Shown here: piece by piece, positions 6,033-56,492 of the stretch
Layout of the letters: every line of letters begins with the position of its first letter
Position numbering within the stretch: the stretch's first letter is position 1
NCBI GenBank assembly: GCA_028710275.1
Contig: JAQTUL010000001.1
Location: forward strand, 73,031 to 137,030
From: Candidatus Colwellbacteria bacterium
GTDB lineage: Bacteria > Patescibacteriota > Minisyncoccia > UBA6257 > Colwellbacteraceae
Length of the DNA: 64,000 nucleotides
Direction of reading: 5' to 3'
Program-made: the position numbers and the translations under genes
Notes under the pieces: generated by a model
The model's database searches: none
What the model was told of the DNA's origin: nothing
The model's input: the letters and a program-made list of their open reading frames with translations, nothing else

Positions 6033-6036
6033 TATT

Positions 6037-6090: not shown

Positions 6091-6119
6091 CATTTTAATG
6101 TTTTCAAACATTAAAATGA
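6091..6119 (-). terminator. 3'-end hairpin of gene 6142..6549 (13-bp stem)
   Basis: 'cattttaatgttt tca aaacattaaaatg'. Confidence 0.5.
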
Positions 6120-6141
6120 AAGTTATGTAGTGAATTGTCAA

Positions 6142-6549
6142 TCAATCAATTGACAATTTCGTCAATGTCTTGAACTGATTGTATAATACCGAACAGTCGA
6201 TATAATTACAATCAACCAACTTCAGTTCCTTCAATCTCTTCATCGGAAGCAGAAGATGTTCTACGAAATTACAATCTCTAATCTCAAGTATTTCAATTAC
6301 GTCTAAATGCGACATCATTCCTTTGATCTCATTCATCCCTGACTTTTCACTGAAAACAAACGCTCGGAATGGAATATTATGCAAATCTTTTCTTAACCCT
6401 CTTGACGATTTAAGAAAAGAGACTACATCTTCACGGGGGAGAAAAGATGAGATGTAGATGTTTAAATCAGTAACAGAAAATGACATACTGAACGTCTTAT
6501 TTCTTTTGAGGGAAAGTGCGTGTACTAGTTTATAAACGATGATAGTCAC
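6142..6549 (-). CDS. Hypothetical protein (weak F-box/LRR-like features)
   Basis: 135-aa ORF with a leucine-rich C-terminal half. Assignment is weak. Confidence 0.35.
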   Translation of the reverse strand: MTIIVYKLVHALSLKRNKTFSMSFSVTDLNIYISSFLPREDVVSFLKSSRGLRKDLHNIPFRAFVFSEKSGMNEIKGMMSHLDVIEILEIRDCNFVEHLLLPMKRLKELKLVDCNYIDCSVLYNQFKTLTKLSID

Positions 6550-6571
6550 TTTTTCATCACTTTTTCATCCA

Positions 6572-7423
6572 TTAAATAGGAGGGATTTTCTTCACCATAT
6601 CAGAATCCAGAACATACTGAGCAGCCTTCTTCTCCGCATCCTTCAACGATGGTCCGTAGAATGCAACCGACTGGTATGTCTTATTGAGTGGTCTATCGAA
6701 AATATTAACTTTCACTTGGTATCGTCTCTGATATGCTGTGGGATCCATCGACCCTTTTACCGATTTGTCCTCTTCTGAAACATACTTGATGATCAGTCGT
6801 CCTCTGAATCCAAGGATAACCTCGTTCAATCGACTCTTCGCATCATATAGTTCATCTCGTTCAAGAGAAACCTTGATAGGATCCATAAGAGTCTTCATGA
6901 TCTTGTAGACGATACCGTACCCTGAATGATCGGTAACCTTTGTATCAACAAGAAGTTCGAGGCATCCACAGAATGCCTCGAACACATCCTCCATGATCTT
7001 CTTTCTGTTTTTATTCTCCTCATCAGTTCGTCGAACATAGTCCCAAAATCCGAGGGTCTCCGAAAACTGGGCATAAGTTGTTTTTGATACTCCATTCTGT
7101 TTCAATCGTGCCATGATAGCAACAGGACCCATATTTCCTCCTTTTCCCTTTGCGTCATTAAACACCTCGGGGAACCGACGAATAAAATACCAGACAACAA
7201 CCTTATTAGTTGTTGAATCTCCGAGAATCTCATAGAACTCGTAGTTGTCCACGGGATCAATCGACTTGTGTGTGAAAGCCTTGGTGAATTCGATCATTGA
7301 AGTTTTATCGGTAAAAGCTTCAATGTACTTGGGTCCTAGATGAGCTCTCTCGAGAACAGACTGGATAAACTCACGAAACTTGGGATTTTCGTGAGTTGAA
7401 GGAGCAGAAGCAGGTGCAGCCAT
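6572..7423 (-). CDS. rnc: Ribonuclease III
   Basis: RNase III signature 'YEFYEILGDSTTNKVV' (compare ERLEFLGDA) followed by a dsRBD-like C-terminus. Confidence 0.85.
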   Translation of the reverse strand: MAAPASAPSTHENPKFREFIQSVLERAHLGPKYIEAFTDKTSMIEFTKAFTHKSIDPVDNYEFYEILGDSTTNKVVVWYFIRRFPEVFNDAKGKGGNMGPVAIMARLKQNGVSKTTYAQFSETLGFWDYVRRTDEENKNRKKIMEDVFEAFCGCLELLVDTKVTDHSGYGIVYKIMKTLMDPIKVSLERDELYDAKSRLNEVILGFRGRLIIKYVSEEDKSVKGSMDPTAYQRRYQVKVNIFDRPLNKTYQSVAFYGPSLKDAEKKAAQYVLDSDMVKKIPPI

Positions 7424-7492
7424 GATTGAGAGGTATGATTATTATCTCTAGCAATTTTAATAATATCATTTTTTATTTATATAGTATAATAT

Positions 7493-7879
7493 ATGCCTTC
7501 CAAAAAGACAAACCGTAAAAGCAGGGTACGATCTCGATCTGGTTCGAGGAAGTCTCGCTCTCCGTATAAATACAATAGGAGAAATAACCTCCTCAAACAA
7601 GTTTCTAAGAGAAAGACTAAAAGTAGGTCTAAAACGAGAAGTAAAAAGAAGAGTCGGTCGAAGTCTAAATCACGCAAAAGATATTCTTCGTCGGTACCAA
7701 AGAGTAGGAAATTTAAATCGAGAAGTCCTCGCAAACTTGTAGATATCAGTGCGTTTCAACACCGAAAAAAATCACCTCGGTATTCAGCTAATGATGGATT
7801 TCAAAAGGTACAGAACCGACACCGAAGAAATATCCAAAGTCGAAAAAATAATCATTCCCCGAAGAGACGATATCATTAA
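7493..7879 (+). CDS. Highly basic Arg/Ser/Lys-rich small protein (possible nucleic-acid-condensing protein)
   Basis: 128 aa made up of RS/KS repeats ('SRSRSGSRKSRSP', 'KSRSKTRSKKKSRSKSKSRK'). Sits in its own intergenic slot. Confidence 0.5.
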   Translation: MPSKKTNRKSRVRSRSGSRKSRSPYKYNRRNNLLKQVSKRKTKSRSKTRSKKKSRSKSKSRKRYSSSVPKSRKFKSRSPRKLVDISAFQHRKKSPRYSANDGFQKVQNRHRRNIQSRKNNHSPKRRYH

Positions 7880-7910
7880 ACTCACGTGAAACTTTTTTAA
7901 GAATCATTTT

Positions 7911-8561
7911 ATGATTGCATATCATAAAATGGACAAGATCATCTCATTATTCAGAAAGAGAGGAGGTTCAGACTACATTGGAGAACCTGTAACACAGGAA
8001 CAACATATGGTTGGTGCAGCTCTCATCGCGGAGGAGAAAGGATATTCAGATGATCTTATTGTCGCGGCTCTTCTACATGATATAGGACATCTTCTCTTCG
8101 AAAATGAAAAAATGGGCGATCTCGGCGTGAAGGGTCATGAAAAGATTGGTGCAGATTATCTCCGTGGGCTCGGTTTCAACGAAACGGTATGCGATCTTGT
8201 TGAAAATCATGTGAACGCAAAACGATATCTCTGTACCGTGTCACCATTGTATTCGAAAAATCTATCCAACGCCAGTCGGAAAACATTAAATTATCAGGGA
8301 GGACCTATGTCAAACAAGGAGATTTGGGAATTTAGAAAACGCCCCCGATTTGAAATGTACATCGATCTTCGAATAGTCGATGAGTTGTCAAAAGAGTCCG
8401 ATATGAAAGGTAGAGATTTAGAGTATTTTATTCCTCTTTGTGAGCGATGTATGAAGAATAAAATAAGAGCGATCTATCCCGGAAATAATTCTTGGGAACG
8501 TGTTCAGATTGATACCGAACCTACAGTTGATAAGTTTAGGGGATCACATTCCATTCAATAG
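7911..8561 (+). CDS. HD-domain phosphohydrolase
   Basis: 'HMVGAALIA...AALLHDIGH' HD motif plus the downstream His/Asp residues of the HD superfamily. Confidence 0.75.
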   Translation: MIAYHKMDKIISLFRKRGGSDYIGEPVTQEQHMVGAALIAEEKGYSDDLIVAALLHDIGHLLFENEKMGDLGVKGHEKIGADYLRGLGFNETVCDLVENHVNAKRYLCTVSPLYSKNLSNASRKTLNYQGGPMSNKEIWEFRKRPRFEMYIDLRIVDELSKESDMKGRDLEYFIPLCERCMKNKIRAIYPGNNSWERVQIDTEPTVDKFRGSHSIQ

Positions 8562-8961
8562 CGGATGTCTTTCCTGTTGAATGACAGATGTGATTGAGGA
8601 AGGAGAGTTTCTCTGCAGCAATCGGAACCCACACTTTGGGATTGTCTGGACCCGGAACGTAATCATATTGAATTTCTACGAGTTTGTTCCATACTACGGC
8701 TTGAAGTTTCAAGCCGTGACTGAACTTCGAATTCTTGAAAATCTCTCGATCGATGATATAATCGTACAACTCTTTTGCTATACGCACCTTGTTATCCTTT
8801 CCCCGCGTAGTTTCAATTTCAACAAGTTTCTTCTTCATAAACTCAATCATCTCTACACCTTCCTTCTCCTCATGTGGAGTTGTCACAGGATATAGAGAAT
8901 TTCCGATATTCTCCGGAAGAATCGGTTTCAGAGACATCTTGAATGTGAAGTTGGATATCAT
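8536..8961 (-). CDS. Hypothetical protein
   Basis: 141-aa ORF convergent with, and slightly overlapping, the HD gene. No motif. Confidence 0.4.
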   Translation of the reverse strand: MISNFTFKMSLKPILPENIGNSLYPVTTPHEEKEGVEMIEFMKKKLVEIETTRGKDNKVRIAKELYDYIIDREIFKNSKFSHGLKLQAVVWNKLVEIQYDYVPGPDNPKVWVPIAAEKLSFLNHICHSTGKTSAIEWNVIP

Positions 8962-9030
8962 GATTACAATATTTTAAAACTCATTTTTAGGTGTTCCCTT
9001 TACAGCTATTTCTCACCGATCGTTTATCAG

Positions 9031-9603
9031 TTAATATCTTCCAACGTGATTAGTCTTGATAAAAATCCAACAGCAGCAAATAAGAATTCCGAAAATACAC
9101 GCGAGAACAATGAGAGCAATCTCCCACCCGGGCATTGCCTCTACTTGAGCCGCCCAATTCTGTTTACTGAGAATTGTGTTCAACATCAATGCTGAAAACT
9201 GTACACATCCCTCTTGAGACAGACCAATTGCTTGTGATGTCGCGGTCATATGATTCCAGTTCGATGACGTTACTGCACAGGGGAAGTTTCCCTTCCAATC
9301 AGAAATGGTGATCGCTTGTTTGAACGCAGAGACCACACTTTCAACTCCGATACTCTGAACATAGTTAAATTCATCGACTGAAGACGCATCAGAATCTACC
9401 GCAGAAACAGTAACATATGCTCGCGCAACGACGATATTACTTGATGTCACATAGGCCTGTCTACAGAAATAGAGATTCTTACATTCATCTACTATGTCAT
9501 ACCCGGTGAAAATAGTTGTGTTACTATCTACTTTAATGTAACGATCGAGAGCGTTAACTCTATACACGCAGAGTACTAGGAGGAGAAGAATTCTTGAAAA
9601 CAT
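9031..9603 (-). CDS. Type I membrane protein (signal peptide plus C-terminal TM anchor)
   Basis: N-terminal 'MFSRILLLLVLCVYRVNA' signal-like segment and C-terminal 'IALIVLACIFGILICCCWIFI' helix, with a Cys-containing ectodomain. Confidence 0.5.
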   Translation of the reverse strand: MFSRILLLLVLCVYRVNALDRYIKVDSNTTIFTGYDIVDECKNLYFCRQAYVTSSNIVVARAYVTVSAVDSDASSVDEFNYVQSIGVESVVSAFKQAITISDWKGNFPCAVTSSNWNHMTATSQAIGLSQEGCVQFSALMLNTILSKQNWAAQVEAMPGWEIALIVLACIFGILICCCWIFIKTNHVGRY

Positions 9604-9621
9604 TTTTGTGTGATAGCTAAG

Positions 9622-9653
9622 TGAAATAACCTATTTGGATAATGGTTATTTCA
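9622..9653 (-). terminator. 3'-end hairpin of the MTase fusion gene (10-bp stem)
   Basis: 'tgaaataacc'...'ggttatttca', 16 nt past the stop. Confidence 0.5.
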
Positions 9654-9668
9654 TTTTTAACAGAAGAA

Positions 9669-28559: not shown

Positions 28560-29705
28560 TTAATCTATACAACCCGCTCTAGCAATATCCACTTTTCTCC
28601 CAATTCCCCCTCCATTCCCATCATCTGGACCACAATACCACTTCCAGAAACACTGAGACTTGTCCTTTGTTAGAAGATATAATCGGTACCAGTTTCTGAT
28701 TCGTAGAGATTTCACCTTGGATCTAAATTTCTTGAGTCTATTCAAGTGTATCTTCTGAAGTGATGGGTCATGTTTAAATTTGTTCTCGCTCAACCCCGTC
28801 CAACTCCATGGTTTCTCCGGATGGGCGAGAACAAACTCGGGAGTGATGTTCGGATTCTGGCTCAACCCCACCCAATCCCATGGTTTCTCCGGATGGGCGA
28901 TAACAAACTCGGGAGTGATACTCGGATTCCTGATCAGCCACTCCCAATCCCATGGTTTATCTGGATGAGCGAGAACAAACTCGGGAGTGATGTTCGGATT
29001 CTGACTCAACCAATTCCAATCCCATGGTTTATCTGGATGAGCGAGAACAAACTCGGGAGAGATGTTCGGATTCTGACTCAACCAATTCCAATACCATGGT
29101 TTCTCCGGATGAGCGAGAACAAACTCGGGAGTGATACTCGGATTCACACTCATAGAATCCCAATTCCATGGTTTCTCCGGATGGGCGAGAATAAATTCGG
29201 GAGTGATACTTGGATTCTCACTCAACGAATACCAATTCCATAGTTTCTCCGGATGAGCGAGAACAAACTCTGGAGTGATACTCGGATTCTCACTCAACGA
29301 ATACCAATTCCATAGTTTCTCCGGATGAGCGAGAACAAACTCGGGAGTGATGTTCGGATTCTGGCTCAACCAATACCAACTCCATGGTTTCTCCGGATGG
29401 GCGAGAACAAACTCTGGAGTGATACTCGGATTCATACTCAACCACTCCCAACTCCATGGTTTCTCCTGATGAGCGAGAACAAACTCGGGGGTGATATTCG
29501 GATTCATACTCAACCACCCCCAATCCCATGGTTTCTCCGGATGAGCGAGAACAAACTCGGGAGTGATGCTCGGATTCATACTCAAATCAGACCAACTCCA
29601 TGGTTTTTCCGGATGAGAGAGAATAATCAATTCTAATAGAGACATATGGTGAAGTAGTACAAATAAAAGATGTGAAATTAGGGATGTGGTGTTGGGAAAA
29701 ATCAC
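28560..29705 (-). CDS. Tandem-repeat protein (about 13 copies of a 22-aa 'NPxITPEFVLAHPEKPWxWxxLS' unit)
   Basis: The protein repeat is nearly perfect and is mirrored by 66-bp DNA repeats. Confidence 0.6.
   Translation of the reverse strand: MIFPNTTSLISHLLFVLLHHMSLLELIILSHPEKPWSWSDLSMNPSITPEFVLAHPEKPWDWGWLSMNPNITPEFVLAHQEKPWSWEWLSMNPSITPEFVLAHPEKPWSWYWLSQNPNITPEFVLAHPEKLWNWYSLSENPSITPEFVLAHPEKLWNWYSLSENPSITPEFILAHPEKPWNWDSMSVNPSITPEFVLAHPEKPWYWNWLSQNPNISPEFVLAHPDKPWDWNWLSQNPNITPEFVLAHPDKPWDWEWLIRNPSITPEFVIAHPEKPWDWVGLSQNPNITPEFVLAHPEKPWSWTGLSENKFKHDPSLQKIHLNRLKKFRSKVKSLRIRNWYRLYLLTKDKSQCFWKWYCGPDDGNGGGIGRKVDIARAGCID
28780..29640. repeat. 66-bp tandem repeats encoding the 22-aa 'PEKPWxW' units
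   Basis: 'ccatggtttctccggatg(a/g)gcgagaacaaactcgggagtgat' recurs about 13 times. Confidence 0.7.
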
Positions 29706-29854: not shown

Positions 29855-32770
29855 CTAGACCAGGACACTTTTCCTCGTATTCTGTTTCTCGACCCAATCA
29901 TCCCACTCAACCTCTGTGTTCAGATGGTTTGCGATATTCTTCACATTAGTGAACGACATCTTGCTATCACTCACTCTCACCATTCGCGCGGGATCAAAGT
30001 TGCGTCCATAGTTGAACTGGATAACCATGTTCTTTGAGTTCACAACCAATCCATCACTGTAGGACTTCACGAGATCCTCCATCTTCTTCACCAACTTTCG
30101 TTGAATATATCCAGACTGAGCAGTATCAGCAACCTGAAGACCATTCGCCAACCCAAAGTTAAGTGTACTAGGAATCGTAAGATCGTATAGTTTTTCATGT
30201 CCATCACAAGACATTTTTTCAATTGATACTATTTTATCCAATACGATATCGTTATGAACTTCGAAGTGTCGGTGAGGATTTTTCGGGGTCTTAATCATGT
30301 TCAACTTCTCTTGTTTCACAGAGTCAATCATGGGAATGGTCTCAGCAAACTTCTTAGACCACACATTTGAGATCTGAAGTCTATATGAAGGTTGAATAAC
30401 TTTTGTTCCCAGATTATTTTTCTTAATCTGTACCTTAGAAATCTTACCGAAAATACCAAGAGTGTTACACAATGTACTGATACCCTCAATAAGTTTAGGT
30501 GAAGAAGTTCCAGCCACAATCATATTTCTCTCAACAGCACCATCTCCTGAAAAATATCCGTTCAGGAGGGAGACGATGAATTCTTTAGGAGCTGTATATG
30601 CTTCATTAGGTACAAATTTATTTTTTGCTCCGTGACCAACAAACTTATCAAGGAATTGAGACAACACACTCGATCGACCTCGAACATCGCTTGTAAATCC
30701 TTCGATACCGTTAATTTTAAAGTTTTCAGAAAATTCAATCGAGTGTTTGACAAACCATCCTTTAACAAACTCACGAATTGTATCGTCGTTGTTGGTTATC
30801 TGAACATAATGTCCGTCAGTATTCCCTTCGGCCAGGTACAATCCGATAAAGAGACCGTTGTCAGAATTTAATTCGAAAGAATCCGGGATTTTAATATCTG
30901 TTCTACATCCTGAAAACGGATAGATATATCCATCTTTAATGTTATCGACATTAGATCTAGTTATCACTCGTTGAAGTTTCGCCTTTGACGTATATGGTAC
31001 AGTGAATGTTGATCCGTTATTCTCTTTCCACCAACCTCTCGGAATATGAAATTCTGTCATAGCATTCTCCATGCTGGAAACAGCTACATTAAACTCAGTT
31101 CCATAAACATATTTATCTTTTGGTAGATACTTGGACATATCCACATAATTTTTAACGATTGGGATGTTCATCAGATTCATTGTCACAGGGAGATAATCAC
31201 CCACCTTAATATCTGGAGTATAGATCTGTTCCAACACTCTCTTCTCTTTGTTCCATACAAGAAGAGATTTCGATTCGGCAACCACAACACTTCTCCCACC
31301 ATACGTTGTTACTTTATAGATATTTTTACTAGGGTCATGTCGTGTAGCATGGGAGATCTCCTCCCATGAGACGTTACCATCATTATCCGTAGTTGAAATG
31401 TACGTTTCTTTTTCCAACTCTAATGTCTCCATATTCTGTTCGTCTTGATGAACAATGTTTTTATTCCCATTCATCAAATCATCAATCCATTCTCCGATTT
31501 GTACATATTTAGCATCACCATCTTCAATGATGATGATAGTTGTTTCTTTTGTTACAGATTTCACTGCTGTGTCGATAACACCTTCTCGACCACCCTCTGC
31601 GTGGAAGAAGAACTCTTGAACAGTCAATCCCTCCATGTAACAGTGAGCTACAAATCCTCTGCTTTCATAAAGTAGTCGTCTCTCCATATCCTCTTGTTCC
31701 GGAGTTGCATCTTCCGGATACTCACCCTGTGTCTTGGAGTATGTAGGATTAGTTCGTCCACCAAATGTGAGAGGGATACGCTTACCCTCAACGTTCTGTT
31801 GTCCGACCAGAACTCGGATCTGTGAGTTGTTCACATAGCTACCTTTGGATCCCGCACTGATCATCACGTTCAAGGAATTTTCATACTCGAACTCGTTCTT
31901 GGTGATCAGCTGACCAATTGTGGTTGCGCCGTTGAGCGCGTTATTGACCTTTCGCTCACGCAACTCCGGATCACTCTCTGACGTCTCAATACTTTGAGCC
32001 TCCATAAAACTCTTGGATATCTGGTTCTGAACATCCGTGACTCTGATTGGAAGACAGTCCTCAATTCCGATAGAGAATCCTCGAGCCTTCAGACAGTGAT
32101 TGATCAACCACTGGTAGTAACTGACAAAGTCGATTGTGATCTTCGCTCCATACTCCTTCTCCAGTTTGTGTACAATGGAACTGTGACTGTCACCGAGAAC
32201 CGACTTGTTGAGAATACCCTTCAACATGACACCTCGAACAATTTCAACACCGCTCGGTTCGAACGTGTATTCGAAGTCATCGGGAAGAAGATACGAAAAC
32301 AGACAGTGTCCAGTGTACATGTAATCATCAATCTCCGCCTCAGTAAATTTTTGCCATCGCAAGACGCTCTTGATATGATCCATCTTACGAAAAATGTAAT
32401 CCTCAGTATCCTCTTCGTATGTGATCGAAGAATGTTTTCTCTTTTCGAGTTCAGAGATCTTGGACATAACAGCCGTTCTGTTTCCCGAAATAAACCAATC
32501 GTCCACGCATGTCAGAGCATCATTGAAGAGGACACGATCGATGTAGTTTCGCGGGTTGAACTTACGGACAGTCTTTCCGTTGACAGTCTCGTTGTAATAG
32601 AATCCACGGGTGAAGAGATTTCCACCGGTAAGCGCATCCTGTGTGATTGAGAGTAGAAGACGCGCGTTTTGACTACTCTTCAAGAGAGCAGCAGTTGAGG
32701 ATAATAGTAGTAATTCTGCCACAGCCTCATACGACTGCGGAATATATAAATTCATCTCGTCCCCATCGAA
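29855..32770 (-). CDS. RPB1: DNA-directed RNA polymerase largest subunit (RPB1), exon 3, containing an intein; the frame ends about 90 aa after the intein host site
   Basis: Begins 'FDGDEMNLYIPQS' (the NADFDGDEMN active site). Contains '...HAEGGREGVIDTAVK[intein]TAQSGYIQRKLVKKMEDL' and 'VIQFNYG'. The track ORF start at 32833 is intronic sequence read through. Confidence 0.85.
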   Translation of the reverse strand, partial: FDGDEMNLYIPQSYEAVAELLLLSSTAALLKSSQNARLLLSITQDALTGGNLFTRGFYYNETVNGKTVRKFNPRNYIDRVLFNDALTCVDDWFISGNRTAVMSKISELEKRKHSSITYEEDTEDYIFRKMDHIKSVLRWQKFTEAEIDDYMYTGHCLFSYLLPDDFEYTFEPSGVEIVRGVMLKGILNKSVLGDSHSSIVHKLEKEYGAKITIDFVSYYQWLINHCLKARGFSIGIEDCLPIRVTDVQNQISKSFMEAQSIETSESDPELRERKVNNALNGATTIGQLITKNEFEYENSLNVMISAGSKGSYVNNSQIRVLVGQQNVEGKRIPLTFGGRTNPTYSKTQGEYPEDATPEQEDMERRLLYESRGFVAHCYMEGLTVQEFFFHAEGGREGVIDTAVKSVTKETTIIIIEDGDAKYVQIGEWIDDLMNGNKNIVHQDEQNMETLELEKETYISTTDNDGNVSWEEISHATRHDPSKNIYKVTTYGGRSVVVAESKSLLVWNKEKRVLEQIYTPDIKVGDYLPVTMNLMNIPIVKNYVDMSKYLPKDKYVYGTEFNVAVSSMENAMTEFHIPRGWWKENNGSTFTVPYTSKAKLQRVITRSNVDNIKDGYIYPFSGCRTDIKIPDSFELNSDNGLFIGLYLAEGNTDGHYVQITNNDDTIREFVKGWFVKHSIEFSENFKINGIEGFTSDVRGRSSVLSQFLDKFVGHGAKNKFVPNEAYTAPKEFIVSLLNGYFSGDGAVERNMIVAGTSSPKLIEGISTLCNTLGIFGKISKVQIKKNNLGTKVIQPSYRLQISNVWSKKFAETIPMIDSVKQEKLNMIKTPKNPHRHFEVHNDIVLDKIVSIEKMSCDGHEKLYDLTIPSTLNFGLANGLQVADTAQSGYIQRKLVKKMEDLVKSYSDGLVVNSKNMVIQFNYGRNFDPARMVRVSDSKMSFTNVKNIANHLNTEVEWDDWVEKQNTRKSVLV
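30125..31558 (-). mobile_element. Intein (478 aa) with a LAGLIDADG homing-endonuclease domain inserted in RPB1 between AVK and TAQSGY
   Basis: N-terminal 'SVTKETTIIII' (block A). 'ISHATRHD' (block B). LAGLIDADG motifs 'LFIGLYLAEGNTDG' and 'LLNGYFSGDGAV'. C-terminal '...YDLTI...NFGLANGLQVAD' then +1 Thr. Removing it restores 'DTAVKTAQSGYIQRKL' at canonical length. Confidence 0.75.
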
Positions 32771-34061
32771 CAGGGGGATCCAATATCTTTCAATATCGGC
32801 CGGACTATATCTTAAGCATGTCGGATGACACACCCATTCCCGTTTAGTCTCTGAACCTTCTCCATATCTTACGAGTTAGGAGCTTGGCTGCGGATTGTCC
32901 ATTGTTCATCTTTTACGTTTTTACTGTTCCGTAGGTCGTTACCCCCGGTCTCACTCAAGGATTTCTCAATGAGGATAGTAGTAAAAGCTTTAGGAGTTTC
33001 CCGCAATTTGAGGATGTCGCGATACCTTCATATCACTAGCAAGTTATATTAAAGAACAAATTACACTGTTTACCCGATGAAGTATTTTGTTCAACTTCAT
33101 CAGCAGCTTGCTGTTTCAGACTTCGATAGTTAAAAGAGAGTCAAAATTATCGGAAACAAAGACCTTATCTTTTGTTGACAAGGCGTAACAAAATTCCAAA
33201 GATATATCGAGAGCATCAGATAAAGAGATGTTTTTACTTCCAAAATTTATTCTCTTTTCTTCCGATTGTTTAGTCATGATGTCTGTGCGAACATACACCG
33301 CAACTGTATAGAACGTTTTGTATTTGAATGGTGTCACTCTTAGTTTTGATATGTTCATTCCGGAAAATAGATCTAGTTTATCTTGGTATTTGGGTTTATC
33401 GATATAACTGATTATTTCAGTATCATCGCCCTTTATTTTGTTGATAAACCGATTCGCATTCTTTACACATAACTCAAAGGTTTTGTGTTTTCCGGAATTA
33501 AACATTACACGAACTTTGTTTTCGTGACCTTCTATTTGAAGCATCACTCTTACAGAGTCGTATACACCATTCTTTTTTATAGGACGCTGAATGATCTTTT
33601 GAATATTCATTTTCTTGTACTCTGAAATCTTTACAGACATTGTTTTGAAGCCTTCCCCTCCCTTCTGAACATTGTATCCGTTTGGAATCATCGAGTTGAG
33701 ATCTTGAATATAAAAACATTCACGAGAATCCGCTTGAGATAGTTCACACATCTCAAGTTCTTCTATAGAGAAGTCTTCGTCACCATACTTTCTAATATCA
33801 ACGTGAAGAGGAGACGACGCTCCCTTCTTTGCTCTAAAAAGATGCCCTTTGAATCTCCCGTCGATACCATATGTTGAAAAATATCCTCTACAATCCTTTA
33901 CACGTTCTAGATAGTTACGAGTTTGTCCTACAAACACTTTGCCAGTTGTTTTACTGGTAATTTTATAAATGATGCTCTTGATTATCTTTGACATTTTATC
34001 ACACTGTAGATCTTTGTTATATGTTTAACGATAATGTTTAAATCGATTTTTAAAACGGTTA
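32771..34061 (-). mobile_element. Group I (IC1/Tetrahymena-type) self-splicing intron 2 in RPB1, carrying a GIY-YIG ORF in its P1 loop
   Basis: P1: the exon end 'ucagau' pairs with the IGS 'gucuga' located just after the ORF. Core: 'caaauugcgggaaa', 'cgcagccaagcuccuaa', 'agacuaaa', 'uaagauauaguc'. P9: 'ccgauauuGAAAgauauugg'. Omega-G lies before 'uucgaugggg'. Splicing gives ...KTYNSD|FDGDEMN. Boundaries are inferred to within a few nt. Confidence 0.7.
33116..33994 (-). CDS. GIY-YIG homing endonuclease (intron-encoded)
   Basis: 'IYKITSKTTGKVFVGQTRNYLERV' (GIY...YIG), a conserved Arg, Glu and 'NGYN'. It lies entirely within intron 2. Confidence 0.8.
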   Translation of the reverse strand: MSKIIKSIIYKITSKTTGKVFVGQTRNYLERVKDCRGYFSTYGIDGRFKGHLFRAKKGASSPLHVDIRKYGDEDFSIEELEMCELSQADSRECFYIQDLNSMIPNGYNVQKGGEGFKTMSVKISEYKKMNIQKIIQRPIKKNGVYDSVRVMLQIEGHENKVRVMFNSGKHKTFELCVKNANRFINKIKGDDTEIISYIDKPKYQDKLDLFSGMNISKLRVTPFKYKTFYTVAVYVRTDIMTKQSEEKRINFGSKNISLSDALDISLEFCYALSTKDKVFVSDNFDSLLTIEV

Positions 34062-34199
34062 ATCTGAGTTATAAGTCTTACACTGGGCCAAATTCATTCG
34101 AATACATCTGACCGGTTTATGATTGTTGATACCTGATGTATTTTTGATAATTTTTAGTTTTCTCGCAATCATGGATCCCTTATGGAGAGTTGGTTGTCG
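34062..34199 (-). CDS. RPB1: RPB1 exon 2 (46 codons: RQPTLHKGSMIARKLKIIKNTSGINNHKPVRCIRMNLAQCKTYNSD)
   Basis: Encodes the conserved RQPSLHKMSMM...RLNLSVTSPYNAD segment. It is in frame with exon 1 (…ALFG) and exon 3 (FDGDEMN…). Confidence 0.65.
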
Positions 34200-34564
34200 C
34201 AAACCAGTTTCCAGTCTTTCGAACTGAAATTGGACTATATCTTAAGCATGTCGGATGACACACCCATTCCCGTTTAGTCTCTGAACCTTCTCCGTATCTT
34301 TTACGATTTAGGAGCTTGGCTGCGGATTGTCCATTGTTCATCTTTTACGTTATTACTGTTCCGTAGGTCGTTACCCCCGGTCTCACTCAAGGATTTCTCA
34401 ATGAGGATAGTAGTAAAAGCTTTAGGAGTTTCCCGCAATTTGAGGATGTTGCAAATAGATGATCTATTCACTAGTAGATTATATCTGGGGACAATTTACA
34501 CTGTTTATCCCGAATAGTATATTGTCCAACTATTCGAGCAGTCTACTGTTTTCGGCCAACATTA
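34200..34564 (-). mobile_element. Group I intron 1 in RPB1 (365 nt, no ORF), homologous to intron 2
   Basis: P1: 'uucggu|' pairs with the IGS 'gccgaa'. It shares the same about 300-nt core as intron 2 (94% identical over plus 34237-34456 versus 32800-33018). P9: 'cagttcGAAAgactg'. Omega-G lies before 'cgacaacca'. Confidence 0.7.
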
Positions 34565-36394
34565 ACCGAACAATGCAATATCTCCATTTCGAATATGTCG
34601 TTCGACGATATCTCCAACTTGAACTTTGAAGAATCTCTTTTTCGATGGAACGATGTTCTTGAGTTCCTTTCCTTGACGAAAGACACGATCGCCGGGTTGA
34701 ATCTCGAACTTACCCGATTTTTGAAGCTCAAGATCGGGGCTGATAGTACGATCTCCTCGACGGATGACATCTCCAAGCTCAACTTGAAAAGTAATCTTCT
34801 CCGGGAGTTTGAATCCTTTCAAGATCTTTCCACCACGAGCAATCTTGTCCGTGGCGAGAAGAGTGATTGCGCGACCGGTTGCTGCCTTGAATTTTTCAGG
34901 GTAGATTTTCTTTCCTTCACGCAACACAATATCATCTTGTTCCAGAGAGAATCCACCGGTTTCATATGTTGCGCGTGTCTTGAGATTTTTCTTCAGATCA
35001 TAACTATCCATTTCCTTAGTCGCAGGATTGAGTCTTTTCACATAGTTCGCCTTTCCAGTGTTGACCAGTTCGTTCATCGCTGCGAGATTGCGATCAAAGA
35101 CTCGTTCAGGGAATGTGAGCTTTTCAGCAAACTCCTCGGGAATAGCAATCTCATCTGCGCGAAGACTCGGATCGGGATCGATAACTGTACGTCCAGTAAA
35201 GTCGTTACGTTTTCCTGAGAGATTCTGACGGAACAGTCCTCCCTTTCCATTCATACGCTCACGAATACACTTGATCGGACGTCCAGTGATCTGACGAGCC
35301 TTGAATTGATAGTTGTACATGAGAGTTCGAATATGGAAAAGTAGACCATCCTTCTTCTCTGCCAACTCCTTCTCTTTCAAGGGTTTCACTCCCGACGTAT
35401 GATTTTTGATCGCGTTACATCGTTTGATGATCTCCACGTATTTCGAGGTCAGATCATCGTCACAAGGGCCACGATTTGTTTCGACGAATGGACGCGCACA
35501 GATAGGAAGGACAAGTAGAGAGGTGATGATGAAATCCACAGGATTGATCTCTCGTCCCTTCTCATTCAATCCCATGTTCTTGAGATCCTTCGCCTTGATC
35601 GATCCGAGAACGTTCTCGATCTCCAAAAACGTCATCTCTGTCTTCTCAGACTTCTCACCCTTGTACTTGTAGTACTTGTAGTCCTCGACGTAGTACGACC
35701 ACTTATCACACTCACACTTTGAGTTTGGACACGCCTTCACTTTGGCTGTATAATCGATGATCGCTTTCATTCGACTCGCTCCTCGAAGACTGAACATATT
35801 CAGGAGTTTCATCTCCTTCTGAGTGATGAGAAGAGATGCACACTCACCACAGAAACAGTTCAGATACATCAAAATCTCCTCTGGGTACATAGGATGCGCG
35901 ATGGGAATCGGAAGTTCAATGTGACCGAAATGTCCTGTACACTTGTTATTCGATCCGTTACAAGTCACACAGAGGGCATGATTCTTCAGAACTCCCATAC
36001 GCGGATCATACACCGTACCTTGACCTGAGAGTTTACTGTCGGTGATTTCACATACTGAGATCTTCTTCACCTCCCGAGACGAAAACATACCGAAAGCGAT
36101 TCCTGTGAACTCCGTGGTATTTTCACACGAGACGATATCATCTTCGGTTATCTCCAGAAAATCCTCCTGGTCATCATCCTCCTTATTCCATTCAGTCTCC
36201 GCATCCTCGAGAATCTCTTCTCCTTCTCCAACGAGAAAATCTCCTGCATCCTCTTCCTCCTCGATAACTATCTCCGCTTTCTTTATCTGAGAGGCAATCC
36301 TCTTCTTCATATCGGAAATCGAGATATTGGACGACATCGTGGATCGTGTCTTCTGAAGCTGTAAAAATAGGGAAACTGTTATAGTAGAAATCAT
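34565..36394 (-). CDS. RPB1: RPB1 exon 1 (N-terminal clamp / active-site region)
   Basis: 'CVTCNGSNNKCTGHFGHIELPIPIAHP' Zn-binding region, 'GKGGLFRQNLSGKRNDFTGRTVIDPDP', and the end '...RNGDIALFG'. The in-frame taa at 34562-34564 is intronic. Confidence 0.85.
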
Positions 36395-37606: not shown

Positions 37607-39232
37607 CTATTCGAATATGATGTCAGCGTACTTATGAAATAGATTGTCGACATCAATCTCTGTGATCTTATTTCTCTCATCGTCTCCGTCATAATAGAGT
37701 TTTACTACACTTAGGAGATAAGGTGGTGGATGTAACATTGAGGATTTTATTAAGGAGACCAATCTCTTCTTTCTTGTTAAAGTTATTCCAGCTCTAACTT
37801 TATTTTTACCTGAGTCAGTATATCCGTCGGGATTGAAACGGATAAATAGAACATTTGGTCCACCGATTCCCTGTTGAATATTCACCATTCTCGCTGTCTC
37901 ACATTCATCAGCGTAACTCGAGTGTTGGTTCTCATCCACTTCTATAACTATGTAGTGTGTCTCACAATCGATTAGAAAGTCTGGTCGGTGTTTGTGACAA
38001 CTGGGATCTGAAGTCTTATCGTGGATGAAATCTATTTCCGATTCCTCTAGGAGAGTTTTTACTTTCAACTCCTTCTCGTGTCTGATGGTCGTAATATCCA
38101 CTTTAGCACAGATGTTACACATCTTAGAGTCCGATTTAATAAAGAGTACCTGATCACAGATCATACAGTTAGCTTCAGAGATTTGAATATCATCATCTAG
38201 TTTGTGTTCGCCACATCGAAGCGGATATGAATCATCTTTGTCTGTATAGTTCGGTGTCTCTTTACATATTTCATGTTCACATTTGGGTTTATTCTTTGTG
38301 TACATGTTAGGAGTTCTATGTTTAGCGCATGATGTTTTCTGTTGAAAGAGAAGACCAAACGTTGCTCGTGTACCACATTTAGGGTGAAGACATATTTTAT
38401 GTTTTACATCCACATAATCGGCTTGTTTATGAGCTGAACAAAATTCAGCAATTTTACTACCTGGTTTTCCAAACACAGGTAGTTTATTACACTCGGAATA
38501 AGAACAAGTCTTATTCTTTACATCCTCATAATCGGCTTGTTTATGGGCTGAACAAAATTCAGCAGTTTTACTTCCTGGTTTTCCGTAATTGGGTATTTTA
38601 TTACATTCGGGATAAGAACAAGTCTTATGTTTTACATCCACATAATCGGCTTGTTTATGAGCTGAACAAAATTCAGCAATTTTACTTCCCGGTTTTCCGT
38701 AATTGGGTCGAGTGAGACATCCTGGACTGATACAAGTCTTACTCTTTACATCCACATAATCGGCTTGTTTATGAGCTGAACAAAATTCAGCAATTTTACT
38801 TCCCGGTTTTCCATAAACTGGTCGTGTACAACATTCGGAATAAGAACAAGTCTTATTCTTTACATCCACATAATCGGCTTGTTTATGAGCTGAACAAAAT
38901 TCAGCAATTTTACTACCTGGTTTTCCAAACACAGGTAGTTTATTACACTCGGAATAAGAACAAGTCTTATTCTTTACATCCTCATAATCGGCTTGTTTAT
39001 GGGCTGAACAAAATTCAGCAGTTTTACTTCCTGGTTTTCCAAATGTAGGTATTTTATTACACTCGGAATAAGAACAAGTCTTATTCTTTACATCCTCATA
39101 ATCGGCTTGTTTATGGGCTGAACAAAATTCCGCAATTTTACTTCCTGGTTTTCCAAATGTAGAATATTTATCACATCCATCATATTTGCATATACGAGAC
39201 ATTTTTGATACCATTTCTAGTTTATTTCTCAT
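37607..39232 (-). CDS. Zn-ribbon repeat ('2-cysteine adaptor'-like) protein with a C-terminal PD-(D/E)xK nuclease domain; paralog of 17392..18972
   Basis: Eight near-identical 39-aa repeats of 'KTCSYSECNK.P.FGKPGSK.AEFCSAHKQADY.DVKNK'. C-terminal 'RPDFLIDCETHYIVIEVDENQH'. Confidence 0.65.
   Translation of the reverse strand: MRNKLEMVSKMSRICKYDGCDKYSTFGKPGSKIAEFCSAHKQADYEDVKNKTCSYSECNKIPTFGKPGSKTAEFCSAHKQADYEDVKNKTCSYSECNKLPVFGKPGSKIAEFCSAHKQADYVDVKNKTCSYSECCTRPVYGKPGSKIAEFCSAHKQADYVDVKSKTCISPGCLTRPNYGKPGSKIAEFCSAHKQADYVDVKHKTCSYPECNKIPNYGKPGSKTAEFCSAHKQADYEDVKNKTCSYSECNKLPVFGKPGSKIAEFCSAHKQADYVDVKHKICLHPKCGTRATFGLLFQQKTSCAKHRTPNMYTKNKPKCEHEICKETPNYTDKDDSYPLRCGEHKLDDDIQISEANCMICDQVLFIKSDSKMCNICAKVDITTIRHEKELKVKTLLEESEIDFIHDKTSDPSCHKHRPDFLIDCETHYIVIEVDENQHSSYADECETARMVNIQQGIGGPNVLFIRFNPDGYTDSGKNKVRAGITLTRKKRLVSLIKSSMLHPPPYLLSVVKLYYDGDDERNKITEIDVDNLFHKYADIIFE
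38330..39180. repeat. Near-identical 117-bp tandem repeats (x7-8) encoding the Zn-ribbon adaptor units
   Basis: 'aatcggcttgtttatgagctgaacaaaattcagcaattttact...' recurs with very few mismatches. Confidence 0.75.
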
Positions 39233-52016: not shown

Positions 52017-55000
52017 TTAAATCAGAGGCTTAGTTTTATGATTCTCCTCATCATCACTACTATCATCGTAATCACTACTCTCATCATCTTCCGATACCTC
52101 TTTGATCTCTACAGCCTTTACTTTCTTCACCGGTGATTTTTTCACCGGCGATTTCGTGTTTCGTTGTGGACTCTTTGGTTTCTTCTTATGAAGCATCGAG
52201 AAGTCCTCTTCGACATCTTCCTCAACAACTTCCTCAGGAACCTCGATATCAAATGAATCTTTTTCCTCATTCTTATCGAGGTCCTCTTCACGAATGATGA
52301 TCGCCTTTCCCTCCTTCTCATCATCTTCCGCGGTTCTCAAACGATATCCCTTCCACTTATGACTCGGAGTAAGATCACCCCACTTCTTTGTTATCTCATC
52401 CCTCAGATCCTCCTTGGATGGAATTTGAGAATGAAGGTTAGGATAGGAATCGTCGAACCAGGTCTTGAATGAGTTGTAAGTCTCGACGACAGACATAAGA
52501 GCTTTTTCATTCGAAGGCTCATAGACAATCTTCTCCATGATGAACTGGAGGAATACGTCGTTCTGCTTACGATAAGCAGCCGTGGCTGAACGAACTTTTT
52601 CTGGTTCAGCCATACGTCCATCCTTGAGAATCTTTTTGAATGTGTCAAACATCATCCACATAAATGGAGCTTTCATTTTGGGAAGTTTATCAGTAAAGTA
52701 AGGGTCTCGTGGAAATCTCTTCAATCGAATCTGATCTTCAAGAAGCTCAGGAACATTATCTTTCGGGAAACATGCCTCATGAGGAAGAACTCGAATACGA
52801 TTCCATGTTGCGGGATCATCACATGGAAGTCTCGGAAGCTTATTACATATTAAACTAAGCTTGAACTGAGGCTTCAGTTCCTGACTTTCTTTGTACAGTC
52901 CACGATAATAGATGATATCGTTACCACTTAATTCCTTCAGAATACCGATGTTGATCACATCTTTGCTATTCGGCTCTTGAAGGACAGCAAAACGGACTCC
53001 AGGAAGACCGGCATACTCTGGAGTTGCTTGAGATGACTGAGTACGCTTTCCACTAATCAGAGAGGTTGGAAGAATCTTCATGTATCGACCGAGTGTCAAC
53101 TTAAGAAGATCCATATTAACAGACTTTGCGTTATCACCTTCACCTGACATATTAAGAAATGTCTTACTACTATTACCTCCACGAAGAAGACTTGCTGTAT
53201 ATTCCATCCAATATTGTTTCAATTCCGGATCGGGAAACACTTTCGAGAAGTGATCATCTACGTCGATAACCTCTTGACTATCCCAAGAGTACTCCTGAAA
53301 ATCGTAACCAGTCGTAAGACTGACATAATCAGTCGGTCGTCCGGGACGAAAACGCATTTCTCCGAGATCGAGAATACCGTTACTGAAATGAATAAGATTG
53401 ATATCAGAGTCCAATTTATCGATAAAACTGTCATCGACAAACAGTTCGATACAATTGTGAACCACGACACCATTTGCAACAAAGTTATGAATATTGTCAA
53501 CGGTAATATCATATACAGTTCTCTTTCCGACATTTTTAATATTGTGTACATCAACAATAAGAGATGGAAGAGTTAAACTATCTCTCTTAAAGCAATATGA
53601 AGGTCCATTATCCGAAAAGAAGAAATCTTTTACACCAATACTCTCCATATATTCAATGGGTTTAATCCCCAGTTTATACCTAATCTCACCAATATTTCTC
53701 ATATTATTAACCAATGTTGAGTATTTAGGAACCACTTTATCATTTAAGAATCTACCATCTCTAGTTTCAACGTTGAGTTTAGCTTGATCGATATAGTTTC
53801 TAAGGTTTACTCTCTTTACACCATCATATCCAGAAATTTTCTTTAATTCTTTTAGGAATTCTATTCTCTGGTTGCATACTGTATTATACATATTCGCGTA
53901 AGAACATGCTGCTGTTAGTTTCAATAATTTATTTGTACAATAACGAAATCCAATATTATCTGAAAACAAAAGAATATCCCGAAAACTGACATCAAATTCT
54001 ATTTCATACAGATCACGATTTTTAACCTTTCGTTTGGATTGAATATTAACATTGGATACTCCACATTTAGAAAACATTTTTACTATATCATTCATCATAA
54101 TTTGAAGAGACTCCACATGCTCTCCACATTTAGATTGTGAAAATCCGACAGATGTTATAACATTCGAATTTGTGACTACATTTGCGTGGCCATCTCCACC
54201 CATAAGTCCTCCCAGAAATTCTCTGATAATAGGAATAGGGCAATCATCTGTAAGAAGAAATTCCGGAAGAGTAGATTTTTGAACCGATCTTCTACCTAAA
54301 CTTATTCCAGGAATAAGAGCAATATTTTTACTCACACATGAAGGAATTGCTACACCATAAGTCCACCCTTTTGTTTCTTCATAAAAACTACTATGATTGT
54401 TAGTTATTTTTGGTCTCTTTCCACAGAGAATTTGTATGTCATCCACAAAATTATTTGCATCAATTAAAGATCCTAATGAGACATTTGCATTAATAATATT
54501 AGTCGACTTGTTATGAATTATAGTTTCGTCAGATAACATTAATCCGATAATTCGACTGAAAATTAGAGATTTTTCATATTCAGATTGTGTATCGGTTTTC
54601 AGAGTGAGAGAACCAAAAGTTGTAGTCCAGCCGTCACATAATTTCATATCATTCACGACACTAATTTTGACACCTGTGATACTAGTTCTCACTTTATCAA
54701 CACCCGGTTTCAAATCACCAGAGAATACCCATCGTCCGTCAGAAGTAAGAATTGGATGATCATGTGTTGAAACAAGTTTGGTTCCATCGGAAAGCATCAA
54801 TTCTACACAGTCCTTTTCTCCTTTGTTCATAAAATTGGTCTGTCTTTCGTTCAATATTCCATTCATATTTTCATCCCACCCAATAAGTCTATTTGTATTA
54901 TTATTTAGTTCTTCGATGGGAACACTCAATCCGTTACTCATTGTTACATACGTACCCGCGCTGATACATTCAGCGATAATATTATTTTTGAACGGTGTCG

Positions 55001-56492
55001 ATTTCAAGCTTGCAATAATTTTATTAACTGTTTTCAAACGCTTCTGAAGTTCAGCATCATCATCTTGTGAACCCATATCCTCACAAACCTTCTTCTTCAT
55101 GTTCTTGTATTCATTAACAAGTTCCGTAGAGATCTTTCGTCTCAAATCGATACCCTGTTTATTTACAACCCATCGGTGATTCTTATAATGAAACCACACC
55201 TTCTTTTCAGGACATGCACACACAAATTCACCTTTATATTTATTATGAAGCAACTTGGCCATATCGTAGTGTCCTCCGTTGAGAGACTCGTTGAATAATC
55301 GATCGTTATCCTTCCTTTGAATCTTTTTATACTCTTCAGGACTATCAATCTTCGCGTAATGATAGAGACTTCCGATAGTACGATTTCTCTTTTCCATACG
55401 CTCCCATTGATACACACATCCGGCCTCTGAAAAATTCTTCTTAGAGGTCTTGGATGAGAACTCAATCCACATATCAAGTGCGTCCTCTGTACCATCTCCA
55501 ATATTGAATAGGACCCATCCAATATCTAACCAGTCGTCGAAGTTGTCTGCGCGAGATGAAGAGATAAGTTTCATCAACTCTCGCGCCTTCTTAAGTGCTT
55601 CAGGAGTAGGCATATCTTCGAACAGCTTCTTACTCTCCTTCGCCTTCTTGAGAAGTTTCTTGGTGATAATGTTCAAGTCGGCTTTCACTGTGATGGGTTC
55701 TCGAGTTCCCGGATGAATAGAGAGAATTCGTGGAAGATAGTACTCGAGTGGATGTTCATCCATTTTTACCGGATCACCATGTACATCAGTCAATTTAAAA
55801 TCACTTAATGCCTCCTCTAGAGAGATCTCGTTACAGTCATCATCAAAAACCTTAGTAACCTTATAGGATTGAAGATACTCCTTCTTTCGAGATCCATACA
55901 GAAGCCAGAACTTTGAAGTACAACTCTTATCAATCACTTCCTCAGACTTGATAACTCCAATATCTTTGAAGAGATCCTTATCTGCTACCTCCTTTCGAAC
56001 ACGAGGGATAAGATGAACATCCTGATCAACCTTGTGCATAATCGCATTGATAAAATGTAAATGAAAACCGTGCTTAATCTCCTCCTTTGTTTTGTCGTAT
56101 GTTGGATGTTCCTTTTCTAGAACGACACAGACACCATGTCGTTTCTCGTAGTTCTTCACAGTCTGCTTCAGATGTTTTTGGTAAATCATTGCTGTCTGTC
56201 TAATATGTGTGTCTTTGTAAAGTTTTTTATCAAGAGGATGTTTGGCTGGATCATACGACAATTTAATATCCGAATCATTGAGTACAGGAAGAAACTCACC
56301 CGGACGTTCTGCGAGGCCGGATACCATCTTCGGATTACTGTACATTGTATCACAATAAAGTTTCCACCACTCCTCATCATCTTTTCTTGTCAAGTTATAT
56401 TTCCCTGTAGGTTGAATCTGTGAAACATGAGTGTAGTACCCCTCACCTTTTTCTTGACGTGTAGCGATGAATTTTCGAAGAGAGAGATCCAT
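52017..56492 (-). CDS. D5-like primase-helicase (AEP primase plus SF3 helicase) interrupted by an intein
   Basis: N-terminal primase region 'KHGFHLHFINAIMHKVDQD'. Helicase region after the intein: '…NMSGEGDNAKS…' (Walker A-like), 'FAVLQEPNS', 'PQFKLSLICNKLP'. Confidence 0.8.
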   Translation of the reverse strand: MDLSLRKFIATRQEKGEGYYTHVSQIQPTGKYNLTRKDDEEWWKLYCDTMYSNPKMVSGLAERPGEFLPVLNDSDIKLSYDPAKHPLDKKLYKDTHIRQTAMIYQKHLKQTVKNYEKRHGVCVVLEKEHPTYDKTKEEIKHGFHLHFINAIMHKVDQDVHLIPRVRKEVADKDLFKDIGVIKSEEVIDKSCTSKFWLLYGSRKKEYLQSYKVTKVFDDDCNEISLEEALSDFKLTDVHGDPVKMDEHPLEYYLPRILSIHPGTREPITVKADLNIITKKLLKKAKESKKLFEDMPTPEALKKARELMKLISSSRADNFDDWLDIGWVLFNIGDGTEDALDMWIEFSSKTSKKNFSEAGCVYQWERMEKRNRTIGSLYHYAKIDSPEEYKKIQRKDNDRLFNESLNGGHYDMAKLLHNKYKGEFVCACPEKKVWFHYKNHRWVVNKQGIDLRRKISTELVNEYKNMKKKVCEDMGSQDDDAELQKRLKTVNKIIASLKSTPFKNNIIAECISAGTYVTMSNGLSVPIEELNNNTNRLIGWDENMNGILNERQTNFMNKGEKDCVELMLSDGTKLVSTHDHPILTSDGRWVFSGDLKPGVDKVRTSITGVKISVVNDMKLCDGWTTTFGSLTLKTDTQSEYEKSLIFSRIIGLMLSDETIIHNKSTNIINANVSLGSLIDANNFVDDIQILCGKRPKITNNHSSFYEETKGWTYGVAIPSCVSKNIALIPGISLGRRSVQKSTLPEFLLTDDCPIPIIREFLGGLMGGDGHANVVTNSNVITSVGFSQSKCGEHVESLQIMMNDIVKMFSKCGVSNVNIQSKRKVKNRDLYEIEFDVSFRDILLFSDNIGFRYCTNKLLKLTAACSYANMYNTVCNQRIEFLKELKKISGYDGVKRVNLRNYIDQAKLNVETRDGRFLNDKVVPKYSTLVNNMRNIGEIRYKLGIKPIEYMESIGVKDFFFSDNGPSYCFKRDSLTLPSLIVDVHNIKNVGKRTVYDITVDNIHNFVANGVVVHNCIELFVDDSFIDKLDSDINLIHFSNGILDLGEMRFRPGRPTDYVSLTTGYDFQEYSWDSQEVIDVDDHFSKVFPDPELKQYWMEYTASLLRGGNSSKTFLNMSGEGDNAKSVNMDLLKLTLGRYMKILPTSLISGKRTQSSQATPEYAGLPGVRFAVLQEPNSKDVINIGILKELSGNDIIYYRGLYKESQELKPQFKLSLICNKLPRLPCDDPATWNRIRVLPHEACFPKDNVPELLEDQIRLKRFPRDPYFTDKLPKMKAPFMWMMFDTFKKILKDGRMAEPEKVRSATAAYRKQNDVFLQFIMEKIVYEPSNEKALMSVVETYNSFKTWFDDSYPNLHSQIPSKEDLRDEITKKWGDLTPSHKWKGYRLRTAEDDEKEGKAIIIREEDLDKNEEKDSFDIEVPEEVVEEDVEEDFSMLHKKKPKSPQRNTKSPVKKSPVKKVKAVEIKEVSEDDESSDYDDSSDDEENHKTKPLI
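53454..54968 (-). mobile_element. Intein (505 aa, canonical Cys...His-Asn/Cys) with a LAGLIDADG homing-endonuclease domain in the D5 primase-helicase
   Basis: Starts 'CISAGTYVTM', block B 'THDHP', LAGLIDADG motifs 'RIIGLMLSDETI' and 'FLGGLMGGDGHA', ends 'FVANGVVVHN|CIELF'. Confidence 0.75.

Follow-up and report, generated by a model that had tools for sequence, protein, structure and literature searches.

Two paralogous group I introns, one with a predicted GIY-YIG endonuclease gene in its P1 loop, near the catalytic site of a giant-virus RPB1

What separates the pieces of an RNA polymerase gene that gene callers render as three open reading frames (ORFs) plus one 'hypothetical protein'? The gene is RPB1, and it lies on a 64,000-nt stretch of DNA (hereafter the window; contig JAQTUL010000001.1, positions 73,031 to 137,030, assembly GCA_028710275.1) deposited under the name Candidatus Colwellbacteria bacterium. 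The gene content of the window plainly points to an uncultured giant virus (Nucleocytoviricota). We consider it highly probable that two group I introns, IC1-like and paralogous to each other, interrupt RPB1 of this virus next to the catalytic site; this confidence applies to the best explanation as a whole, that is, to the introns, their splicing, the endonuclease and the mosaic relationship of the two introns taken jointly. The features are collected in Table 1.

Table 1. Features of the interrupted RPB1 gene, in window coordinates.
Feature	Position	Strand	Description and evidence
RPB1 exon 1	34565..36394	-	610 codons from first ATG; ORF list, translation, Pfam Rpb1 domains 1-2, end of homologue high-scoring segment pair (HSP) at 34565
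Intron 1	34200..34564	-	365 nt, ORF-less, IC1-like; Rfam 93.2 bits, structure, covariation
Intron 1 parts	P10 guide 34561-34557; P1 guide GCCGAA 34556-34551; P3-P7 core 34443-34232; terminal G 34200	-	GAAA-capped P9
RPB1 exon 2	34062..34199	-	138-nt, 46-codon mini-exon (RQPTLHKGSMIARKLKIIKNTSGINNHKPVRCIRMNLAQCKTYNSD); separate tblastn HSPs at exactly those ends
Intron 2	32771..34061	-	1291 nt, endonuclease ORF in P1 loop; Rfam 93.2 bits, orthologous introns at same site, covariation
Intron 2 parts	P10 guide 33129-33122; P1 guide GUCUGA 33121-33116; P3-P7 core 33011-32802; terminal G 32771	-	GAAA-capped P9
GIY-YIG (I-TevI-like) ORF	33116..33994	-	879 nt, 292 codons plus stop; Pfam, I-TevI profile match, conserved residues, L109 homologue
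RPB1 exon 3	29855..32770	-	Begins FDGDEMN; intein inside; stops after start of Rpb1 domain 5
LAGLIDADG intein in RPB1 exon 3	30125-31558	-	Between DTAVK and TAQSGY

The boundaries of the exons were set by homology. In tblastn searches, residues 10-511 of the homologue P0007 align to 36115..34565, residues 512-557 to 34199..34062 and residues 558-1488 to 32770..29882 with zero residues skipped, so that the exon 2 match is contiguous in the query with those of both neighboring exons. Homologues P0036 and P0047 break at the same two junctions. Because independent homologues break exactly there, the junctions rest on alignment and not on motifs picked out visually. Relatives whose RPB1 protein is 78-82% identical to that of the window (L004-6 and L106) are continuous through both insertion sites, and the exon 2 stretch is uninterrupted in intronless L004 and L106. 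All three exon lengths are divisible by 3, and the joined coding sequence has a single terminal stop. Across the junctions (marked by slashes) the joined product reads ...GDIALFG/RQPTLHKGS...CKTYNSD/FDGDEMNLY..., and it matches Pfam Rpb1 domains 1-4 plus the start of domain 5. Exon 2 terminates directly upstream of the catalytic FDGDEMN motif. The initial annotation, a reading of the letters without database searches, had proposed that joining 34565, 34199-34062 and 32770 restores RPB1; the homologue alignments, the open joined frame and the intronless relatives bear this out, with coordinates exact to the base. The protein more likely starts at the Met at 36337 ('MSSNIS') than at the first ATG. 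Below, site 1 is LFG/RQP, site 2 is NAD/FDGD (NSD/FDGDEMN in the window) and site 3, known from relatives, is FDGD/EMN.

In this clade RPB1 is split between two genes, and the window has the N-terminal half. Clade RPB1 proteins without an intein end soon after the start of domain 5, at ~1010-1075 amino acids (1008-1075 among the intein-free relatives), an end point that resembles the archaeal A'/A'' split. Searches with homologues by tblastn found no second half of RPB1 in the 64-kb window.

What are the intervening segments? The Rfam model for group I introns, RF00028 (Intron_gpI), matched 34210-34516 and 32781-33081 on the minus strand over its full length (1-253), each with 93.2 bits and E 1.1e-22 against a gathering score of 50. 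Save for one chance microRNA match, there was no further RNA match at E<=0.1 in the window, and there were zero tRNAs. An in-frame TAA forms the first three nucleotides of both introns. Both show a P1 helix with a U·G pair at the splice site when read from the sequence: at the 3' end of exon 1 (...GDIALFG) the exon strand UUCGGU pairs with the guide GCCGAA, and at the end of exon 2 UCAGAU pairs with GUCUGA. The 3' exons can be aligned as well, by a 5-bp P10 in intron 1 (guide UGUUG with exon CGACA) and an 8-bp P10 in intron 2 (guide CUAUCGAA with exon UUCGAUGG); P10 is 7-8 bp in the introns at site 2 of two relatives, L007 and L109.

These two relatives also reveal how the guide follows the exon. 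Ahead of the final GAU, the Ser/Ala codon reads UCA in the window, the synonymous UCU in L007, and GCU in L109, and each P1 guide matches its own exon (UCAGAU/GUCUGA, UCUGAU/GUCAGA and GCUGAU/GUUAGC, respectively). We regard this exon-guide change as the most telling covariation seen. To derive a common structure, we aligned intron 1, intron 2 minus its ORF and the L007 orthologous intron, three sequences only, and computed an RNAalifold consensus. The helices obtained were P1, a P2 domain (a long-range helix around two hairpins), P2.1, P4, P5, P6, P7, P8 and the GAAA-capped P9; P5 carries a three-way extension in which AAUAA forms a bulge. Once P3 is included as a pseudoknot, the consensus has 107 pairs, and 96.3% of its 320 cells are standard-paired, as against 37-43% in a control with the 3' partners slid by 1-3 columns. 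Changes on both sides occur in 20 of the 107 pairs. Three of the six P1 pairs covary across the three sequences, P3 has two compensatory pairs, P8 and P9 covary, and P4, P5, P6 and P7 are invariant. Folding of intron 1 as a single sequence (minimum free energy -87.7 kcal/mol, z = -1.46) was not significant; it recovered P4-P6, P5abc and P8 and missed the long-range pairs. The structural argument therefore rests on the covariance model together with the covariation. On these grounds both segments are group I introns, as first read: the P3/P7 pseudoknot pairing is conserved, the P1 hexamers and their U·G pairs are those that had been named, and the GAAA-capped P9 and terminal G are present in both.

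Rfam uses one model for all group I subgroups, and the description of both introns as Tetrahymena-type, or IC1-like, is a reasonable label drawn from shared strings and architecture. With the introns Tetrahymena Tth.L1925 and Physarum Ppo.L1925 they share the core strings UCAAAUUGCGGGAAA, CGCAGCCAAG.UCCUAA, GUUCA.AGACUAAA and UAAGAUAUAGUC. With Tetrahymena they further share P2/P2.1 and the P5abc extension, whose A-rich AAUAA bulge aligns with Tetrahymena GUAAUAAG; the reference used for this large-subunit intron has the known length, 413 nt. This much agrees with the initial annotation. However, the two rDNA introns are nuclear and encode His-Cys box enzymes, whereas those of the window lie in a viral protein-coding gene and are associated with a GIY-YIG ORF, and the window intron is without the P9.1/P9.2 extension. 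The I-PpoI gene of Ppo.L1925 is an example of an endonuclease gene located in P1.

Intron 2 has its ORF in the same place. The ATG lies 67 nt past the 5' splice site, and the ORF runs inside the 930-nt P1 loop up to and over the guide sequences: its last five codons, ACU AUC GAA GUC UGA, are the P10 and P1 guide sequence, and the final sense codon with the stop (GUC UGA) is the P1 guide hexamer itself. An 879-nt ORF between the 5' splice site and the guide had been described before; the size and the P1-loop location stand, but the ORF overlaps the guide rather than ending ahead of it. The product is a predicted I-TevI-like GIY-YIG endonuclease, and its activity is likewise a prediction. Against the PDB, I-TevI was the sole match of the ORF alone, a weak one (E 0.064). 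A profile built from this ORF and three homologous intron ORFs matched the I-TevI catalytic domain (1LN0) with E 5e-5 over residues 2-92. Each of two Pfam families, PF01541 and SegE_GIY-YIG (PF19835), finds two of the four related intron ORFs at E<=0.01. Residues Y10, R47, H51, E92 and N108, the equivalents of I-TevI Y6, R27, H31, E75 and N90, are conserved, as is a Gly. The C-terminal DNA-binding part (~170 amino acids) had no match to any known domain in Pfam. The phage T4 td intron, home of I-TevI, is comparable: it is of group I, it interrupts an essential viral gene and it codes for a GIY-YIG endonuclease. It belongs to subgroup IA2 and holds its ORF in P6, unlike the intron of the window.

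How stable is this arrangement among close relatives? The same region of RPB1 occurs in five states. L004-6 and L106 have neither intron nor intein. L007-10 (81-88% identical to the window in RPB1) have the site-2 intron with a 10-nt P1 loop and no ORF, plus the intein. The close relatives L109-111 have the site-2 intron and the intein; at the corresponding place in the P1 loop lies an ORF with 46% identity, which reads through the guide into P2. L001-3 (78-85%) have an intron at site 3, 12 nt downstream of site 2, with the guide sequence GUCUCC; its 36%-identical GIY-YIG ORF of 293 codons begins in the P5 extension, crosses P4' and P6 and has its stop just ahead of J6/7. The window itself is the double state, with an ORF-less intron at site 1, the ORF-bearing intron at site 2 and the intein. 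One such site-3 insertion spans L001 9921-11170, and L003 and L016-L018 have the like. Protein-guided scanning of IMG/VR for site-1 introns found only distant relatives (<=49% identity), continuous across the sites; the corresponding metagenome scan gave two relatives among the matches listed, both intronless.

This series holds evidence on the ORF and on the sites. A TTAAC direct repeat, read from the sequences, flanks the ORF-bearing segment of the window relative to L007, and removing the DNA between the repeats recreates the L007 loop to within one nucleotide. This match fits gain or loss of the ORF as a separate unit. Introns also lie at site 2 in the distant RPB1 of L019 and at site 3 in those of L016-18 (24-30% identity in the aligned N-terminal part). 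Sites 2 and 3 are recurrent homing sites at the motif of the catalytic aspartate. The allele series is well suited to studies of how homing elements are gained, lost and recombined at the catalytic center of a viral RNA polymerase, and it could be used for testing intron-mediated interference between giant viruses.

How did one gene come to hold two such similar introns? The initial annotation gave ~94% identity over ~220 nt and took one intron to have copied to a second site. The introns are indeed closely related, but the identity is 97.6% (207/212) in the P3-P7 core, 69.5% in P1-P2.1 and 46.3% in P9 and the 3' end; only the core is near-identical, the peripheries have diverged and the copying scenario is too simple. 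The comparison of intron 2 with its L007 orthologue gives another pattern, with 64.1% in P1-P2.1, 78.4% in the core and 80.6% in P9 and the 3' end. There the core diverges at about two-thirds of the rate of the periphery, whereas between the window introns it diverges >10-fold more slowly. Moreover, P9 of intron 2 is nearer to that of the orthologue in another virus than to that of intron 1, 138 nt away, and P1-P2.1 and P9 of intron 1 are as distant from intron 2 as from the orthologous intron of the different virus. Since P2, P2.1 and P9 make no exon contact, adaptation to a new site does not explain this peripheral divergence. Exchange between the two introns, by recombination or gene conversion, is the best explanation of the mosaic. 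On the best reading, site 1 has a paralogue that is older or foreign, with a core that recently gave way to that of intron 2, or the reverse.

Could intron 1 nevertheless be a plain recent duplication, a direct ORF-less copy of intron 2 moved 138 nt upstream and since changed only where forced? The near-identical cores would follow directly, and among the relatives recovered site 1 is occupied in the window only, while site 2 is widely occupied. The guides also fit: GUCUGA of intron 2 pairs at 5/6 positions with the site-1 exon UUCGGU, and each of the three guide differences in intron 1, as read from the sequence, turns a wobble or mismatch into a Watson-Crick pair. Still, the helices free of exon contact differ by 30-54%, with many compensatory changes, and the affinities of P9 and the slow core just described also speak against such a copy, which we judge unlikely. 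We also considered reverse splicing as the origin of intron 1 and set it aside; the 5/6 guide fit is a weak hint, as the estimated chance of such a fit is ~8%. Recognition of both sites by one endonuclease was likewise rejected as unsupported: target sites 1 and 2 have no similarity, with matches at 18/70 positions, the random expectation.

Alternatively, intron 1 could have been acquired independently, from another virus or gene with a near-identical core and with no exchange between the two residents. Introns of this family occur widely among giant-virus contigs, where they lie in several genes, and the site-1 intron is unseen in the close relatives recovered. However, no donor-like sequence appeared. 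When the periphery of intron 1 (P2 and P9) was compared by BLAST with every fetched locus, the best matches reached 77-80% over 41-65 nt, and the bacterial and archaeal species genomes had no match to an intron-1-specific 49-mer or to the family core pattern. Furthermore, orthologous cores are only 78% identical between viruses with 81-88% identity in RPB1 protein, and it would take a coincidence for a foreign donor to combine a 97.6% identical core with a periphery that is unrelated. We rate independent acquisition as slightly less probable still than plain duplication.

The arrangement might also be no biological arrangement at all, through a mis-join of strain variants during assembly, or be a dead relic of non-splicing introns in a pseudogene. 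The 212-nt repeat probably exceeds a typical short read, and the Logan contig L108, from run SRR22315508, ends inside the repeat on both sides. Yet each unique segment is single-copy and stands in the only order that gives a complete conserved RPB1 (exon 1, intron 1 5' part, intron 1 3' part, exon 2, ORF, intron 2 5' and 3' parts, exon 3). In L108, exon 2 is joined to the 3' end of intron 1 and to the ORF of intron 2, although the reads of L108 may overlap those of the window's assembly. All core helices and both guides are intact, and so are the terminal Gs and the reading frames of the exons. Artefact and relic together appear very improbable.

What would the two introns do in a working gene? 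Their expected behavior is deduced from what is established for group I introns and homing endonucleases, given two intact ribozyme structures with exon-matched guides, an intact I-TevI-like ORF and optional presence among close relatives. By the standard group I pathway, guanosine would attack at the P1 U·G pair, and the freed 5' exon, aligned by P10, would attack after the terminal G. This would join 34565 to 34199 and 34062 to 32770 and restore RPB1; the spliced product would then also need protein splicing of the RPB1 intein. Intron 2 is the resident of the recurrent homing site NAD/FDGD, and its endonuclease would cut intronless RPB1 alleles of co-infecting relatives, so that repair copies intron 2 in. 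Such cutting would drive homing and possibly also interference competition. Intron 1 has no endonuclease gene and most plausibly would be carried along by co-conversion as a passenger, since 138 nt from site 2 is within typical co-conversion distance. Finally, because the endonuclease ORF ends on the guide hexamer, translation and P1/P10 formation would be mutually exclusive on each RNA: ribosomes completing the ORF on the guide would block P1/P10 on that molecule. Tentatively, these elements may form one composite mobile unit, in which the intron 2 endonuclease opens the catalytic-site region of intronless RPB1 alleles and repair copies both introns, local recombination keeps the cores identical (concerted evolution) while the exon-specific and peripheral parts remain distinct, and the guide-ending ORF makes translation and splicing exclusive. 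We regard this full model as possible rather than probable.

Several points weigh against the account given here. Splicing, endonuclease activity and homing are deduced from structure and sequence, and the structure statistics are limited, coming from three sequences. The co-conversion of intron 1 is a proposal drawn from its distance to site 2. Gene conversion after the arrival of intron 1 and a chimeric origin of intron 1 would fit the mosaic equally well. The site-1 intron was found in no relative recovered; the window is the sole occupied case, with no second such genome. As for the endonuclease, the ORF alone scores 21.7 bits against Pfam GIY-YIG (PF01541), just below the threshold of 22.6; the family claimed by the initial annotation is supported by the I-TevI profile match. 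At the position of I-TevI Y17 the window ORF has Phe, whereas its three homologues have Tyr; full activity is thus uncertain, and the enzyme may be weakened.

Is a twin arrangement of this kind new? The initial annotation had suggested that it may differ from described cases, and here it must be corrected. In Bodo saltans virus (BsV), polr2a and polr2b hold 'parental' introns with HNH or GIY-YIG endonuclease genes and ORF-less 'offspring' introns in the same gene, with 94.4% identity; inteins occur in the same genes, splicing was confirmed by RT-PCR, and the introns were proposed to interfere with competitors that lack them (Deeg et al. 2018, PMC5871332). BsV and the window thus share an RNA-polymerase large-subunit gene with an endonuclease intron, a related ORF-less intron and an intein. 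They differ in that BsV is a klosneuvirus and the window belongs to an environmental clade with a split RPB1, that the window has only two introns, and that its offspring intron is not near-identical along the whole ribozyme (core 97.6%, periphery 46-70%). P1 is moreover a listed site for endonuclease genes in nuclear group I introns (PMC3679873). Denser arrangements exist too: the IMG/VR giant-virus contig L024 has 16 Rfam group I matches in 12.7 kb, with gaps of 22-285 nt. Because BsV polr2a, the listed P1 location and the IMG/VR arrays precede it, the arrangement is not new, and it changes no established principle. The points of interest are the mosaic of core and periphery, the ORF that ends on the guide hexamer and the allele series. 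A functional parallel is gp210 of phage PhiPA3, where an intron endonuclease in a phage RNA-polymerase gene was shown to harm a co-infecting relative (PMC11620839). There, too, an intron-encoded endonuclease is found at conserved catalytic-region residues of a viral RNA-polymerase subunit; the differences are an HNH enzyme, the beta-subunit gene of a jumbo phage and a single intron.

The array of L024 spans 1456-12756 and is also present in L013 and L023; its units are 68-91% mutually identical, and GIY-YIG ORFs occupy the larger gaps. Arrays of group I intron matches also occur in L022, L015, L011 and L012.

The viral assignment of the window follows from its other genes, which include a C962R/D5 primase-helicase, a poxvirus-type poly(A)-polymerase regulatory subunit, and EsV-1-7 repeat, ankyrin and Tub proteins. 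NCBI lists a protein with 100% identity to the endonuclease ORF as 'MAG: hypothetical protein PHG66_00475 [Candidatus Colwellbacteria bacterium]', encoded on a contig of 152,625 nt. Given the giant-virus gene content despite the bacterial label, the contig was most likely mis-binned.

The RPB1 intein starts SVTKET and ends ...GLQVAD before T, so that Asp replaces Asn at the C-terminus and the penultimate His is absent. Inteins at the same RPB1 site in L007, L109, P0007, P0071, P0073, P0079 and P0098 all end [A/R]D before T. Because this ending recurs in seven others, some of them ~33-35% identical in RPB1, it looks like a conserved variant class. A second essential gene in the window has been invaded by a selfish element: the ORF for the C962R-type AEP primase/D5 helicase (52020-56492, minus strand, 1491 amino acids) has its own intein (Pfam Intein_splicing, residues 518-1013). 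An ORF at 526-1557 on the plus strand, with HNH_3 and NUMOD4 domains and no group I match nearby, is apparently a free-standing homing endonuclease and would be the third mobile nuclease type in the window. The window also holds tandem repeats. A 72-nt unit is repeated 11.4 times at 28800-29623 within ORF 28560-29705, and a 114-nt unit with 6.6 copies at 38403-39157, within ORF 37607-39232, codes for cysteine-rich motifs of the EsV-1-7 type. Another EsV-1-7 repeat protein is encoded at 17395-18972.

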